Shown in pieces: positions 261 to 4,020 of a DNA stretch of 13,474 bases. Where the stretch lies: NCBI GenBank assembly GCA_032249395.1, contig JAVVFY010000013.1, positions 1-13,474 of the forward strand, in the 5' to 3' direction. The first letter of the stretch is position 1; every line of letters begins with the position of its first letter. This stretch comes from Candidatus Aenigmatarchaeota archaeon (GTDB lineage Archaea > Aenigmatarchaeota > Aenigmatarchaeia > CG10238-14 > SpSt-28). The translations under genes and the position numbers were made by a program. The notes beneath the pieces are model-generated. The model did no database searches. It was not told the origin of the DNA and was given only the letters and a program-made list of their open reading frames with translations.

Positions 261-413
261 AAAATAATATTGTTTTTTTAAATAGCTTTTCGCTACTTTT
301 TATGTATATAAAATGAGAAATTGAGAAGAATTAATCCTAAGCCTAAAACTCATTTTTCTTTTTGTTCAATGTTAAGAAAGAATAAACAAATCTAAAAATA
401 AAGTAGTCTCATC

Positions 414-458
414 CTCAAGGCAAGGTTGATTCTAAATGCCTTAGAGGTGGGTGCCGCC
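414..458 (-). other. 3' strand of the 16S pre-rRNA BHB processing stem
   Basis: RNA CCCACCUCUAAGG-CAUU-UAG-AAUCAACCUUGCCUUGAG pairs with the 5' leader CUCAAGGUAAGGUUGAUU-GAUG-AUA-CCUUAGAGGUGGG (3953-3996): 4-bp central helix with two 3-nt bulges, a canonical BHB. Confidence 0.93.
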
Positions 459-500
459 TTGCACACAAAACTAAGGAGGTGATCCAGCCGCACCTTCCAG

Positions 501-583
501 TTGCCGGGTCGGTAAAGTTAAATCACCTCCTTACTCATCATTCGTCAGAGTCAAGCCATTATATCATCTACTTTACCAACCCT
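501..583 (-). ncRNA. 83-nt BHB intron after ~A1513 (helix 45); putative box C/D guide RNA
   Basis: Terminal stem GGUUGGUAAAGU/ACUUUACCGACC, central helix GCCG/CGGC (relaxed BHB); removal restores GCCGUA|CUGGAAGG. Inside: AUGAUAU(561-567)-guide-CUGA(545-548)-CGA-AUGAUGA(535-541)-guide-UUUA(519-522). Confidence 0.88.
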
Positions 584-715
584 TACGGCTACCTTGTGGC
601 GACTTAGCCCCCCTCGCGGAGCTCCCACTCGACCCTTTTGGGGCCTCGAGGGAGCTCCACTCGGTTGGCTTGACGGGCGGTGTGTGCAAGGGGCAGGGAC
701 GTATTCGGCGAACGT

Positions 716-802
716 GTTCATGGTGGCAAGATGATCTTTGGCTCTATTTCCTCATCTTTTAATCTGGAGTAGTGCATGCTAATCATTCTCACCTTACCAC
801 CA
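716..802 (-). ncRNA. 87-nt BHB intron after ~A1363 (helix 43 loop); putative box C/D guide RNA
   Basis: Canonical BHB: GGCGAACG-UCAU-CA^U-GGUGGUAAG / CUUGCCACC-AUGA-AC^A-CGUUCGCC. Inside: AUGAUUA(780-786)-guide-CAGA(763-766)-UUAA-AAGAUGA(752-758)-guide-AAGA(735-738). Confidence 0.9.
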
Positions 803-960
803 TGATGACGTTCGCCTACTAGGGATTCCGGCTTCACGAGGGCGAGTTACAGCCCTCGATCCGAACTGGGCGCGCTTTTAGGGGATTTGCTCCCCCTTTC
901 GGGGTGGCATCCCATTGTAGCGCGCATTGTGACGCGCGTGTGGCCCAGGGCTTTCGGAGC

Positions 961-991
961 TTTCGCCGAGAGAGCCAGCAGCTCAGCTCGT
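961..991 (-). other. 31-nt BHB-like mini-intron after U1205
   Basis: Interrupts the conserved GGUCCGUAU|GCUCCGAA; bulges AU^A and AA^G, imperfect central helix CCGU/GCGA, intron helix CGAG/CUCG then GAGC/GCUC. 1205 is a known archaeal 16S intron site. Confidence 0.88.
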
Positions 992-1288
992 ATACGGACC
1001 TACCGTCGCCCCCTCCTTCCTCCCACTTATCGCGGGCAGTCCCCCATGAGTGCCTCCCTTCCGGAGAAGGGAATGGCAACATGGGGCGGGGGTCTCGCTC
1101 GTTAACCGACTTAACGGCACGCCTCACGGTACGAGCTGACGATGGCCATGCACTACCTCTCGGCTCGTCTGGTAAGGTCTTCAGCCTGACCTTCATCCTG
1201 CCGTCAGCCCTGGTAAGATTCTCGGTGTTGAGTCCGATTGAACCGCACGTCCCACCCCTTGTGTGCCCCCCCGCCAATTCCCTTAAGT

Positions 1289-1338
1289 TTGGTGTAGGGG
1301 GAAGCACACCCTCTAGCCAATTCTGGCTTCGCCCCAAA
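1289..1338 (-). other. 50-nt BHB mini-intron after A908
   Basis: AAG-GGUG-AA^U... / ...CACC-AA^A-CUU; removal restores GUGAA|ACUUAAG. 908 is a known archaeal intron site. Confidence 0.92.
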
Positions 1339-1449
1339 TTCACCCTTGCGGGCGTACTCCCCAGGCGGCCCGCTTAACACTTACGCTCCGCCACCGCACG
1401 CTCCCGAAGAGCGTGCGACAGCAAGCGGGCATCGTTTACGGCTAGGACT

Positions 1450-1553
1450 TTCCCGCATGAGTTAGAGAAAATCCTAGCCATATGGGAGCAAATCATATAT
1501 CAGAGGATTAGATATTCCTCATCTTTAGAATCGGAAGATACCCTAACTCATGT
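1450..1553 (-). ncRNA. 104-nt BHB intron after ~U801; putative box C/D guide RNA
   Basis: CCCG-GU^A-CAUGAGUUAG / CUAACUCAUG-CGGG-AA^A; removal restores AUACCCCGGU|AGUCC. Inside: AAGAUGA(1519-1525)-guide-CUGA(1500-1503)-UAU-AUGAUUU(1490-1496); no clear D box. Confidence 0.88.
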
Positions 1554-1632
1554 ACCGGGGTATCTAATCCCGATTGCTCCCCTAGCTTTCGCCCCTCACC
1601 GTCGGACCCGTTCCAGGCAGCCGCCTTCGCCA

Positions 1633-2327
1633 CTCACCCAGCAGGAGTCATATCATATTGCTAAGCTTTTTAATTTTTTCTGGGTGGAAAATTGTAATTT
1701 TTTCTCGAAAATTACGAAAATTGTTATTGCCTGTTATCCAAAATCTTAGAGAAATAACCTCAATTCCATTCTTTTTTGTTTTTAATTGATCATGTTTGAC
1801 AGTTGATGCCTTTATTCCCAAATCATCCAACATTTGAATTATTTGGAGGAGATATCTTTCTAAATCAGGTCTTAACTCTATAATTTTTGATGCTTTGAAC
1901 ACTATTTGTTTTGAATTACTTGAATCTCTAAAATATCCCTCATCATCAAATATTGCACCAAGAAATGAAGACTTTATTTTATCATCTCCTTTAAAGATCC
2001 ATTCAGGTATTGTAGTTGGTTGAGTAATTTTAGAACCAATTGGCGCGCCTCTTTCTGAAAGAAATTTTCCAACTCTGCTAGGGTATTGATACCTTAATAT
2101 TCCTCCTATAGAAGTCCCTACATTGTATTTGATATTACCGAAAGTTTTAATTACAAGTTCTTTGACTTTTCGTTGAAGAACATTGTTGGAATTTGTATAG
2201 ACGAAGTAATATTTGGTTTTATGGATTGAAGCATCGCCAAAGACATGACCAATCAATCTGGCAATCGCTGTTTCTCTCTCCATAAACTGTTTTTTAATGT
2301 TTATTTTAATTTTCTGACTCCTGCTGA
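1633..2327 (-). mobile_element. 695-nt BHB intron after G722 carrying a homing endonuclease gene
   Basis: CACC-AG^U-CAGCAGGAGUCA / UGACUCCUGCUG-GGUG-AG^U; removal restores CACCAG|UGGCGAAGG. AT-rich interior containing an ORF. 722 is a known archaeal intron site. Confidence 0.93.
1648..2283 (-). CDS. Intron-encoded two-motif LAGLIDADG (DOD) homing endonuclease
   Basis: Motif 1 ARLIGHVFGDASI, motif 2 SSFLGAIFDDEGY, intein-type IPEWIF segment, C-terminal F...I.IFHPEK..KL. Confidence 0.9.
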   Translation of the reverse strand: MERETAIARLIGHVFGDASIHKTKYYFVYTNSNNVLQRKVKELVIKTFGNIKYNVGTSIGGILRYQYPSRVGKFLSERGAPIGSKITQPTTIPEWIFKGDDKIKSSFLGAIFDDEGYFRDSSNSKQIVFKASKIIELRPDLERYLLQIIQMLDDLGIKASTVKHDQLKTKKNGIEVISLRFWITGNNNFRNFREKITIFHPEKIKKLSNMI

Positions 2328-2362
2328 CTGGTGGTCCGCATGGGATTAACGGATTTAACCCC

Positions 2363-2485
2363 TTAGGGTGGATAGTGCAGTCTAAACACTAAAATAGAAT
2401 ACACTCTAGACTATGAGCTAAATCTTAATTCTAAAAATCATTTCATCGCATAAAAGCTCAAAGGTACGCACACTACACTATCCAT
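2363..2485 (-). other. 123-nt BHB intron after ~A687 (helix 23); possible degenerate C/D-like RNA
   Basis: GGGG-UA^A-UGGAUAGUGUAGU / ACUGCACUAUCCA-CCCU-AA^G; removal restores GGGGUA|GGGGUUAAAUCC. Only 35 nt of exon separate it from the 722 intron. Confidence 0.9.
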
Positions 2486-2986
2486 TACCCCATGCGTACC
2501 GCTGCCCTCTCCCGGTCCCGAGCCTGGTAGTATCCCAGGCAAGCCCTGCAGTTTGCTGCAGGATTTCACCTGGGACACACCAAGCCGGCTACGGGCGCTT
2601 TAAGCCCAATAATCGTGACCACCACTCGGGGCGCGGGTATTACCGCGGTGGCTGGCACCCGTCTTCCCCACCCCTTCCTCGCCCTCCCGTTTTCAGAGGG
2701 CAACAGCCCCAGCAGAGCTGGGGCACTCCGGGTCCCCTCGTCGGGCGTTAGCCCATTGCGAAGGTTTCGCGCCTGCTGCGTCCCGTAGGACCTGGGCTCA
2801 TGTTTCAGAGCCCATCTCCGGGCTCCCACTCTCATGGCCCGTAGGCGTTATCGGCTTGTCGGGCCATTACCCCGACAACAACCTGATACCCCGCAGTCCC
2901 ATCCTCGGGCGGCTACGAACACCCTTTGAGGATAGGGGCCTTCCAGCACCCTATCCCTATGGGGTATTAGCCCCAGTTTCCCGGGA

Positions 2987-3790
2987 TTATCCCCATCGGG
3001 CTACCTGTAAAGCTAAGGCAGAAAGATCGTTAATAAAAATAAAATCAAAAGCGTCTTTTAACAACTCTTGTTGATATGGTGTTATTGGCAAATTTGAAAA
3101 CAAAACTAATACTGAAGTTATTTCTGGATAAAGTTTTTTTAATCTAAAGCCTCTTAGTGCAACTCTTTCAATTATTGCATATCTGTGAGAGTATTTTGTT
3201 GATGAAGTAGAGGTAACAAGAATTGCTATTTTCTTTTTTGGAATGAAAATATCTACATTTATTTTTCCCACATATTTGTGAACTTCAATATCGCTTTCGC
3301 TAAGACCACCGTTTTTAAGGTATTCTATTACTTTCTTTTCGTCTTCTCTCACTATTTCTCTTCTTGCTGCTTTTTCTAGTATTTCGCGATAATTGTTTGA
3401 AGAAATATAGTTGATTATGCTTTTTCTTATTTTGTTCTTAATTTCTTCTCTTTTTTGAGGAAAGAATATCTTCTCCAGATTTGTATAGAAAAGTTTGTCA
3501 ACATCTTTAGAGTGGCTTATAGTTTCGATGGTCTCTTGAATGAAAGCCATTAATTTTTTTAATTTTGTATGATTTCTAATTTGCTTAATTCTACCACATT
3601 CGTAATCGCTGATTGATGGATCTACGTTTCTCTTAAAATCTTCTTGCTTAATTCCTCTGAGTATTCTAAAAATCTTTAGGCATTTTGGATTTGTTTTGAT
3701 ATAATCTTCGTTTATTTCTTTGAAATTATTTGTCGCTTTTTTGACTTCGTTGAACAATTTTATTACTTCGCTTATATTCGAGTTTACCAT
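2987..3790 (-). CDS. Intron-encoded protein: XRE-type HTH plus C-terminal PD-(D/E)XK/Vsr-like nuclease fold (candidate non-LAGLIDADG homing endonuclease, possibly inactive)
   Basis: LKIFRILRGIKQEDF...SISDYECG resembles HTH_3; EKKVIEYL...IEVHKYVGKINVDIFIPKKKIAILVT resembles a restriction-endonuclease-like core. The linear stop codon lies in the exon, beyond the 3' splice site. Confidence 0.7.
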   Translation of the reverse strand: MVNSNISEVIKLFNEVKKATNNFKEINEDYIKTNPKCLKIFRILRGIKQEDFKRNVDPSISDYECGRIKQIRNHTKLKKLMAFIQETIETISHSKDVDKLFYTNLEKIFFPQKREEIKNKIRKSIINYISSNNYREILEKAARREIVREDEKKVIEYLKNGGLSESDIEVHKYVGKINVDIFIPKKKIAILVTSTSSTKYSHRYAIIERVALRGFRLKKLYPEITSVLVLFSNLPITPYQQELLKDAFDFIFINDLSALALQVARWG

Positions 3791-3833
3791 ATCTTAAATA
3801 TGGTGAAATGTATTTAAAAGCTTTACAGGCAGT
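2995..3833 (-). mobile_element. 839-nt BHB intron after ~G144 carrying an ORF
   Basis: CCU-CGGG-AG^A-CUGCCUGUAAAGCU / AGCUUUACAGGUAG-CCCG-AU^G-GGG; removal restores CCCUCGGGAG|GGGGAUAAUCCCGGGAAAC. Confidence 0.93.
3811..3826 (-). promoter_or_regulatory. Putative intron-internal BRE/TATA promoter for a leaderless transcript of the intron ORF
   Basis: GTAAAGCTTTTAAATA; the TATA centre is ~25 nt upstream of ATG 3790 and closely matches the rRNA promoter AAAAAGCTTTAAATA. Confidence 0.5.
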
Positions 3834-3952
3834 CTCCCGAGGGTAGGTTGACTGCGTATTACGGAGCAGGTCGCCGAGGGCCTTCCCCTCACGACTTGCA
3901 TGGCTTAGCCGGACCCGGATAGCAGTGGCCTCTGGCGGGATCAGCCAGAATT

Positions 3953-3996
3953 GGCGGGCCCACCTCTAAGGTATCATCAATCAACCTTACCTTGAG
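3953..3996 (-). other. 5' strand of the 16S pre-rRNA BHB processing stem
   Basis: Inverted repeat of 414-458, forming the canonical BHB. Confidence 0.93.
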
Positions 3997-4020
3997 CTCT
4001 TAGCTCAAGGAGAAATTTTC

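Follow-up and report, generated by a model that had tools for sequence, protein, structure and literature searches.

The classical archaeal intron that carries guide RNAs is that of pre-tRNA-Trp (Haloferax volcanii; Pyrococcus sR50), a bulge-helix-bulge (BHB) intron with box C/D guides antisense to its own host exons, and in reviews tRNA introns are listed as the only intronic home of archaeal C/D small RNAs (sRNAs) (PMC7994747). Archaeal rRNA introns, such as those of Desulfurococcus, Pyrobaculum and the Thermoproteales, have been described with open reading frames (ORFs) for homing endonucleases or with nothing, and a 2013 review asks, in its section 6, whether they give any non-coding RNA (PMC3608112). 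The window analysed here, a stretch of 13,474 nucleotides (nt) forming contig JAVVFY010000013.1 of a Candidatus Aenigmatarchaeota archaeon (assembly GCA_032249395.1), carries in its 16S rRNA gene a 104-nt insertion, intron-801, which has in common with these rRNA introns the BHB motif, the link to the tRNA splicing machinery and a position within conserved rRNA helices, but whose cargo appears to be a guide RNA. We consider it probable that this insertion is an archaeal BHB intron which at the same time encodes a guide RNA of the box C/D type. The literature search yielded no account of an rRNA intron with a C/D sRNA, which is a weak negative, the C/D phrase being unsearchable and subscription journals lying outside the scope.

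The resemblance to the tRNA-Trp intron extends to the question whether the guides act in cis or in trans, which is raised for both (PMC7994747). Intron-801 does not belong to that type, since its host is 16S rRNA and not a pre-tRNA-Trp with guides to C34 and U39. It further differs in that the hosts in this genome are 16S and 23S rRNA, with several such introns in one gene, that it has no canonical terminal C/D pair but an upstream D-like box beside the C box, and that it contains extra segments antisense to both exons, and, among relatives, its guide occurs either in the intron or as a gene of its own. With the stand-alone archaeal box C/D sRNAs, dual guides built on a kink-turn (K-turn) and a kink-loop (K-loop), it shares the C variant, the 12-nt guide, CUGA, the short linker, C′ and a second 12-nt spacer, as well as the N5 rule, the protein set and direct sequence homology; by contrast, its module lies between the strands of the intron stem, has CUAG in place of the 3′ D box, and is preceded by an 18-nt 5′ addition with a further guide-like piece and a D-like box. 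A permuted box order, as we infer for intron-801, has a parallel in the Pyrobaculum sR56 and sR57 families, whose permutation is ascribed to circularisation and re-insertion (PMC6009581). Like the intronic small nucleolar RNAs (snoRNAs) of eukaryotes, the guide would come from an intron of a translation-apparatus gene, but the eukaryotic hosts are mRNAs or long non-coding RNAs processed by the spliceosome and exonuclease trimming, whereas the host of intron-801 is the target rRNA, and removal would be by EndA.

The 16S rRNA gene occupies about 3965 to 474 of the minus strand and is split by many insertions in a cmscan of the window. The window corresponds to contig C13 of a 753-kb genome (G000) that is 89.5% complete, and the public runs holding the stretch are mostly labelled hot-springs metagenomes. 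E. coli numbering was anchored on the primer site at 785-805, and the RNA evidence consists of contigs, not reads, of four hot-spring metatranscriptome runs (X15, X16, X17 and X20) over window positions 400-4000. The following features define the intron:

1450-1553, minus strand: BHB intron of 104 nt between U801 and A802 of 16S rRNA, from a 105-nt insertion in cmscan and from RNA joints.
1556-1559, minus strand: exon strand of the BHB central helix, CCCG, pairing with CGGG at 1455-1452; the 5′ bulge is GUA at 1555-1553.
1449-1455, minus strand: intron strand of the BHB central helix, CGGG at 1455-1452, with the 3′ bulge AAA at 1451-1449.
1541-1552, minus strand: 5′ strand of stem P1, CAUGAGUUAGGG, forming 12 base pairs (bp) with 1467-1456.
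1456-1467, minus strand: 3′ strand of stem P1, CUCUAACUCAUG, partner of 1552-1541.

Intron-801 is an archaeal BHB intron that RNA contigs show to be removed from the 16S rRNA. It interrupts the exon between GGAUUAGAUACCCCGGU and AGUCCUAGCC, and its removal restores CCCCGGUAGUCC; the boundary is ambiguous by one A, so that 1449-1552 is equally valid. The motif consists of a 4-bp helix between two 3-nt bulges on opposite strands, and if each bulge is cut behind its second base, 104 nt (1553-1450) are removed, which matches the joint observed in RNA. That joint, from 1448 to 1553, with the same 1-nt ambiguity, occurs in contigs of X16 (depth 357.7), X17 (3.75) and X20 (194), i.e. in three of the four runs, and was not found in the X15 contigs; one spliced X20 contig has no other letters across 92 nt of variable downstream exon. 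Two proteins with an EndA domain (PF01974, 93.9 and 79.6 bits) and RtcB (PF01139, 572.9 bits) are encoded in the genome. BLAST and pattern searches recovered 18 distinct introns at exactly this site, in three families of the order. In their alignment seven of the 12 P1 pairs change on both sides and 90.7% of cells are paired, a covariation score that none of 500 shuffles reached, while slid controls were only 35-47% paired. The four pairs of the BHB helix are invariant in all 18 and are thus conserved but uninformative for covariation. The outer helix beside the motif has just two pairs (C1560-G1448 and A1561-U1447), i.e. the relaxed form, and in the BHB-constrained fold the base of helix 24 is predicted to be able to close it further out.

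Contigs that retain the intron were seen in X15 and X17 only (120 nt, depth 35.5 and 44). These depths are similar to those of a circular 695-nt intron of the same gene in the same two runs (33.9 and 51.9), with an 839-nt intron at about 3-6, which is a weak hint that intron-containing RNA persists. A back-joint of 104 nt was absent among the listed joints, which come from contigs only and so are no evidence of absence.

Within the intron, a guide module is framed by P1, listed here together with its predicted target in exon 1:

1531-1534, minus strand: D-like box D1, CCGA, 8 nt upstream of the C box.
1516-1522, minus strand: C-like box C1, AUGAGGA (RUGAnGA), matching RUGAUGA at six of seven positions with the G-A dinucleotide kept.
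1504-1515, minus strand: guide gB, AUAUCUAAUCCU, 12 nt, 11 bp to 16S 784-794 (window 1571-1561).
1561-1571, minus strand: predicted gB target GGGAUUAGAUA in exon 1, 16S 784-794, in the 790 loop of helix 24.
1500-1503, minus strand: D′ box D2, CUGA.
1490-1496, minus strand: C′ box C2, AUGAUUU, 3 nt after D2 (K-loop spacing), matching at five of seven positions.
1478-1489, minus strand: second spacer gC, GCUCCCAUAUGG, 12 nt, followed by CUAG (1477-1474) at the expected place of a D box.

Read in order, the module runs AUGAGGA, AUAUCUAAUCCU, CUGA, UAU, AUGAUUU, GCUCCCAUAUGG, CUAG, a register that is fixed by the homologues; an alternative with AAGAUGA as C box and a 15-nt spacer was dropped for AUGAGGA and 12 nt after they were compared. 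The guide gB pairs through UAUCUAAUCC (1513-1504) with GGAUUAGAUA (1570-1561), and a G1571-U1504 wobble brings the duplex to 11 bp (10 Watson-Crick pairs and one G-U). A1508, as the fifth base upstream of CUGA, lies opposite U1567 (U788 of E. coli), in agreement with the N5 rule, so that U788 is the predicted site of 2′-O-methylation. Across the 16S and 23S genes 784-794 is the best match of gB (score 10.5), followed by a 23S site (10.0). C1 is present as AUGA(A/G/U)GA in all 18 homologues, and the variants AUGAAGA and AUGAGGA also serve as C or C′ boxes of stand-alone sRNAs in three relatives (G020, G026 and G029). D2 is YUGA or AUGA in every homologue, and the C2 site holds an AUGAnnn box (GUGAAGA in G026). 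The 12-nt length of the gB spacer is kept in all seven introns of the long type, a set obtained through exon anchors independently of the motif, and the core UAUCUAAUCC is identical in these seven and in six of the seven distinct stand-alone sRNAs compared, the remaining one (G017) having UAUCUAAUCA. Fibrillarin (234 bits), Nop5 (210.6 bits) and L7Ae (96.7 bits) are all encoded in the genome.

The second spacer is less regular. Its 12-nt length is retained in all three same-genus introns, but it pairs through its 5′ 6-8 nt only, in a register that varies among homologues, so that it is no standard guide. In five of the seven long-type introns GCUCCC(C) of gC is antisense to 773-779, and in the other two (G067 and G106) the piece is replaced by CCUCUAGCU, antisense to 768-776; since the target region is retained while the register shifts, accessory pairing fits better than a second methylation site.

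The 18 bases added between P1 and the C box consist of UAUCUU, CCGA and UUCUAAAG. At the D1 position CUGA is found in 16 of the 18 homologues, CCGA in the window and AUGA in G026, and the linker from D1 to C1 has K-loop spacing (4-9 nt) and varies in length and sequence. In G011 the 3′ strand of P1 begins directly after C′, which leaves no room for a second guide or a 3′ D box, so that the upstream CUGA is the sole possible partner of the C box. D1 with C1 and D2 with C2 would form two K-loops, a circular permutation of the usual topology. Because the terminal C/D pair is missing, intron-801 is best filed as a C/D-like variant and not as a canonical member of the class.

The same unit exists outside introns. 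Matches in BLAST to the intron interior only were obtained in G018 (E value 3e-6) and G029 (1e-5), at intergenic loci that consist of a terminal stem, C, the same 12-nt guide, D′, 3 nt, C′, another 12-nt guide, D and the other strand of the terminal stem; the unit of G029 has sub-threshold matches to archaeal CD-box families (sR17, E value 0.015). Pattern searches of the 118 genomes of the order and of the 371 of the class found the gB guide in 16 genomes, with one doubtful match with one mismatch among the 253 genomes outside the order; the patterns fix the 12-nt spacing, to which the constancy of that spacing among the matches is due. Eight genomes have the guide inside intron-801 (G000, G006, G007, G008, G011, G013, G067 and G106), eight have it as a stand-alone gene (G009, G012, G015, G017, G018, G020, G026 and G029), and none of the 16 has both, a distribution limited by assembly, as several of the genomes are only 56-90% complete. 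The four genomes of genus g2 with an assembled 16S gene have the stand-alone sRNA and no intron, and G026 combines a guide-less mini-intron with a stand-alone copy. In family f3 several C/D-like units, the stand-alone U788 sRNA among them, are closely clustered downstream of a structured RNA (L036/L158 in G029:C33, L157 in G026:C28 and L199 in G020:C17). The D boxes of this cluster are degenerate (CAGA, CGGA, CUAA), which indicates that weak D boxes are tolerated in this group. A scan of the whole collection for TATCTAATCCTNTGA gave chance matches among those listed, nearly all bacterial, and the two archaeal loci inspected, L045 and L103, are coding-like sequence without boxes.

Among relatives that share the site, the intron itself is variable. 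When window positions 1640-1380 were compared by BLAST with 60 relatives, nine genomes gave full-length matches and most others had intron-less exons. The same-site introns comprise seven of the long type with the gB guide, nine of a short type plus that of G041, a 54-nt mini-intron in G026 and an aberrant intron in G080. The short-type introns retain GGG(AG)UAUCUU, CUGA, a loop, AUGAAGA and GCUAGGAUUUCC without the 12-nt guide, and GUAUCUU with the D-like and C-like boxes is retained in all 18 introns across the three families, in contrast to the variable linkers. A different intron, some 85-90 nt long and without C/D boxes, occurs at 16S ~794/795, 7 nt upstream and inside the 790 loop, at L027 (G041) and L030 (G031); G041 carries both this intron and a short-type intron at 801.

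Two further segments of intron-801 face its exons:

1535-1543, minus strand: segment gA, GGGUAUCUU, antisense to 16S 790-797, directly 5′ of the D-like box.
1465-1482, minus strand: segment iii, UAUGGCUAGGAUUUUCUC, complementary to GGGAAAGUCCUAGCCGUA (1455-1438), an 18-bp helix in the minimum free energy (MFE) fold.

The preliminary description had seen in the intron a mosaic of segments antisense to both flanking exons, which holds for helix 24 on either side of it, and all four of its pairings are present in the sequence. For the first, the anatomy of a U788 guide has been upheld by the 12-nt spacer between C-like and D′ boxes, the N5 geometry and the stand-alone homologues in relatives. Likewise, UUGCUCCC (1491-1484) pairs with GGGAGCAA (1581-1574) over 8 bp, and the pairing of AUGGCUAGGAUU (1481-1470) with 1449-1438 proved to be longer than had been noted, being part of the 18-bp MFE helix of segment iii, whose target comprises the 3′ end of the intron including GGGAAA, the 3′ splice site and exon 2. 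The pairing described near the 5′ end of the intron is also found, with GGGUAUCU (1543-1536) forming an 8-bp MFE helix with AGAUACCC and UCCGAU pairing with AUCGGG, an exon bulge being left.

These complementarities exceed chance near the intron. The 73-nt intron core was compared with 30-nt exon flanks in 2000 dinucleotide shuffles, and the values observed were reached by 0-29 of them: 10 for the longest Watson-Crick run (10), 16 for the run with G-U pairs (13), 29 and 4 for the local alignment to antisense exon 1 and exon 2, and 4 and 0 for the duplex energy with exon 1 and exon 2, respectively. With 100-nt flanks the duplex energy with exon 1 is unexceptional (reached by 626 of 2000), since the longer G+C-rich exon offers many partners. 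Within the gene, in 299 sliding 40-nt windows of the intron-free 16S sequence, the four best energies belong to the four windows that flank the intron (best duplex -36.5 kcal/mol; mean -18.9, standard deviation 4.5).

The helix of segment iii spans the 3′ splice site over 15-18 bp among the introns folded; GCUAGGAUUU of the segment is kept in the nine short-type and the same-genus introns, and the three same-genus introns hold the helix by differing sequences. In G007 a change of the bulge from AAA to AGA is compensated by U to C in segment iii. Within gA, GUAUCUU is invariant in all 18 homologues. The strand of P1 that partners its GGG varies (CUC, CCC, UCC) while GGG(AG)UAUCUU is constant, which indicates a constraint other than P1, for which the invariant exon is the simplest candidate. 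Relative to D1, gA takes the position of a D′ guide; its fifth base would face U793, and no stand-alone sRNA with a guide of this type was found in the 118 genomes of the order. GTATCTTNTGA followed by ATGA matched in 39 of the 118, and the non-16S matches inspected look coding and have no C box at 12 nt, a match in G029:C49 having AUGAUGA 17 nt upstream; a C box followed by GGGTATCT with up to two mismatches occurred in 49 of the 118, all six inspected look coding, and a reversed-pattern control was also frequent.

The pairing with the exons and the fold for splicing are predicted to be alternatives. Pairing of gA with the exon excludes the splicing fold, because the 5′ GGG of gA lies within P1 and its exon partners C796 and C797 within the BHB helix; the topology likewise indicates that the segment iii helix cannot coexist with P1 and the BHB motif. 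MFE folds of the precursor pair the intron with exon 1 (773-779, 779-784 and 790-797) and with the 3′ splice site, and are predicted to be more stable than the BHB-constrained folds for precursors of 130 nt (-42.9 vs -33.3 kcal/mol, a difference of 9.6), 174 nt (-65.5 vs -49.3; 16.2) and 246 nt (-108.5 vs -87.6; 20.9), and similar exon-intron helices recur in folds of homologues. An exon-pairing state that competes with the splicing fold is therefore plausible, as a prediction for naked RNA, and the alternative proposed at the outset, that the intron might chaperone helix 24, fits these folds.

Intron-801 is not the only rRNA intron of this genome with a C/D module:

501-583, minus strand: 83-nt 16S intron, spliced in RNA contigs, with a 13-bp stem.
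716-802, minus strand: 87-nt 16S intron, spliced in all four RNA runs.
Contig C11, about 2640-2725, minus strand: 89-nt insertion in a hairpin loop of 23S rRNA, inside the 23S gene C11:2247-5935.

The first has the order AUGAUAU, AAUGGCUUGACU, CUGA, CGA, AUGAUGA, G-UAAGGAGGUGAU; its first guide forms 9 bp with GUCAAGCCA near 674, and its second, UAAGGAGGUGAU, matches AUCACCUCCUUA (483-472) at 12 of 12 bases, i.e. the anti-Shine-Dalgarno region at the 3′ end of 16S, which lies 18 nt downstream of the intron. The second contains AUGAUUA, GCAUGCACUACU and CAGA, followed further on by AUGAGGA, and its first guide forms 10 Watson-Crick pairs and one G-U with GGUAGUGCAUGG of 16S at 1157-1146; for its second spacer no convincing target was found. 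The 23S insertion has a BHB-like base (GGGU/ACCC with bulges CAU and GAA) and an 11-bp stem, and holds a fully canonical unit (AUGAUAA, 12 nt, AUGA, UUGA, AUGAUUA, GCGGGGUAGCUA, UUGA), whose D guide forms 10 bp with the conserved AGCUACCUCG at C11:2508-2499, about 150 nt downstream; 11 genomes of the family share the word made of its C′ box and D guide, a count taken irrespective of the genomic location of the copies. In these other hosted sRNAs, unlike in intron-801, the intron stem is the terminal stem. Three further rRNA introns with C/D modules indicate that the phenomenon is general in the lineage, which raises confidence for intron-801, and since their guides target sites 18 to about 350 nt away, it appears to be a general rule for sRNA genes to reside in introns of rRNA. 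A candidate stand-alone C/D sRNA on contig C2 of the same genome (about 39637, minus strand) reads AUGAGGC, 12 nt, CUGA, CGCA, UUGAGCG, 12 nt, CUGA, with both guides matching the 3′ part of the 23S gene. A strict two-guide pattern gave four matches over the genome, two of them probably spurious, and two of four shuffled-guide controls also passed, so that no census of sRNAs was drawn from it.

The RNA contigs contain further joints in the 16S gene, namely 501-583, 716-802, 961-991, 1632-2326, 2363-2485 and 2995-3833. The joint at 1632-2326 marks a 695-nt intron 78 nt upstream of intron-801, with an ORF of 211 amino acids at 1648-2283 on the minus strand for a LAGLIDADG protein (PF14528, E value 8.8e-8); each of the four runs has both the spliced joint and a 695-nt back-joint (725-nt contigs), a sign that the excised intron is circular. 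Close to the 5′ end of 16S an 839-nt intron (2995-3833), spliced in all four runs, has an ORF of 267 amino acids (2987-3790, minus strand) that matches no Pfam family at an E value below 0.001. Insertions of 31 nt (961-991) and 123 nt (2363-2485) are skipped in RNA contigs, and no C/D boxes were seen in either; one of 50-60 nt at about 1283-1343 is skipped only in contigs with other letters at the joint, which probably come from other organisms. Contigs of X16 and X17 link position 3972 to 435 in a back-joint with an intervening TT (3974 and TTTT in X20), as is characteristic of a circular pre-16S rRNA intermediate released by cleavage at the BHB of the processing stem.

On the reading of intron-801 as a guide-RNA gene, L7Ae would bind the two K-loops, D1 (CCGA or CUGA) with C1 and D2 with C2, the first replacing the missing terminal C/D K-turn, and Nop5-fibrillarin would methylate the 2′-OH of U788. 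Methylation may precede the splicing fold on the nascent transcript, or the unspliced or excised intron may act in trans. The segments gA (790-797), gC (773-779) and iii would act as accessory pairing that holds helix 24 open and, by competing with the BHB fold, delays it, so that guide action and splicing would be alternative and possibly ordered states, with splicing afterwards freeing helix 24.

Several observations weigh against this interpretation. At the level of splicing, the shorter side of each spliced joint comprises only 20-26 letters, so that the joints could derive from an intron-less relative; the intron-bearing contigs extend just 5 and 10 nt into the exons, and excised intron-801 was not seen as a separate or circular RNA in the contigs of the four runs. 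At the level of the module, the upstream CCGA and AUGAUUU of C2 deviate from the boxes, and a canonical 3′ D box is absent, CUAG (1477-1474) being unable to form the tandem G-A pairs of a D box; the particle would have to be a permuted ribonucleoprotein with K-loops only. Rfam matches on the intron are insignificant (E values 0.75-6); five of the nine weak ones are to CD-box families, and all lie far below the gathering score. The guide also matches 23S rRNA over 9 bp, and pairing in cis with 784-794 looks sterically difficult while 796-799 sit in the BHB motif. Among relatives, 10 distinct short-type introns and that of G080, i.e. 11 of the 18, have neither the gB guide nor a stand-alone copy, as is the case for most genomes of the order, which implies that methylation of U788 is dispensable, and sRNAs with a spacing other than 12 nt would be missed by the patterns.

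An explanation that we regard as unlikely on its own is that the intron is a structural switch, whose antisense segments and K-loops function in folding and splicing and direct no methylation; timing or licensing the formation of the BHB motif and of helix 24 would then fall to the exon-intron helices and to L7Ae bound to the K-loop. The preference of the precursor for exon-intron pairing, by 9.6, 16.2 and 20.9 kcal/mol in the MFE predictions, the recurrence of the helices in homologues, the compensatory change of G007 that preserves the helix over the 3′ splice site and the short-type introns, which keep their conserved words (GCUAGGAUUUCC included) without a 12-nt guide, all agree with it. 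However, it leaves the exact 12-nt spacing, the N5 geometry, the identity with stand-alone dual-guide sRNAs and the either-or distribution unexplained. A role in folding and a role as a guide can both be true.

A further proposal of the preliminary description was that guides may arise through inverted duplication of adjacent exon DNA; on this model the U788 guide and the other antisense pieces would both be such copies. The colinearity of GGGUAUCU-U-CCGAUU and, further on, (U)GCUCCC with antisense 773-797, interrupted by the 46-nt unit of C1, gB, D2 and C2, is in keeping with this, as is an 11-nt piece in G026, UUUGCUCCCCU, that matches that genome's own exon variant. For the U788 guide the proposal is not supported, since the same unit is an ordinary stand-alone dual-guide sRNA in eight relatives that lack either the intron or a guide in it, and has canonical homologues of this kind in two other lineages. 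Moreover, the contiguous antisense appearance of UAUCUAAUCC, GAUU and GCUCCC is private to the window, as relatives have other C′ boxes; the CCGAUU match is equally private, the others having CUGA with variable bases and the same-genus exons AAACGG. Any guide must be antisense to its target, so that resemblance alone is no evidence of origin, and guides hosted by other introns of this genome have targets as far as about 350 nt away. As an account of the intron as a whole it is quite improbable, while an exon-copy origin may apply to the remaining pieces (GGGUAUCUU-CCGAUU and GCUCCC). As gA with D1 equals gB with D2 minus AAUCC (GUAUCUU-CUGA vs AUAUCUAAUCCU-CUGA), a guess just as good for the former is an internal duplication that lost 5 nt. 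Finally, that intron-801 is a decayed relic of a larger mobile intron, with box-like words and complementarities that are fortuitous or neutral, could appeal to the off-consensus boxes (CCGA, AUGAUUU, CUAG), to the lack of anything significant in Rfam and to the classical-type LAGLIDADG intron in the same gene, but is very improbable in view of the shuffle and sliding-window controls, the retention of GUAUCUU and of the D-like and C-like boxes in all 18 homologues amid variable linkers, and the homology to stand-alone sRNAs.

Beyond the reading of intron-801 as a BHB intron with a guide RNA, a bolder generalisation can be put forward, albeit tentatively and as more speculative than probable: the small rRNA introns of the order, as a class, would be genes of guide RNAs that reach their own pre-rRNA in the course of its transcription. 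Intron-801 would clamp helix 24 through its four segments with the 3′ splice site hidden, a C/D particle with K-loops only would methylate U788 and perhaps U793, the latter by a guide confined to the intron, and refolding to the BHB motif would make splicing a checkpoint that frees helix 24 for 30S assembly. Such introns may have begun as sRNAs, possibly circular, that integrated beside their targets, which would account for the permutation of the boxes as well as for the either-or distribution.

It is a long-standing question why introns persist in archaeal rRNA genes, particularly very small ones that encode no homing endonuclease, and for one lineage an answer is offered here, namely that rRNA introns carry guide RNAs that would modify the host rRNA. 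The single classical case of the tRNA-Trp intron would thereby be extended to rRNA, as a prokaryotic parallel to the intronic snoRNAs, and the module of intron-801 seems to work without a terminal C/D K-turn. The intron also explains the disruption of the primer site at 785-805 in these archaea, and it would offer a natural system for the ordering of guide binding, RNA folding and splicing in the ribosome assembly of minimal-genome organisms.

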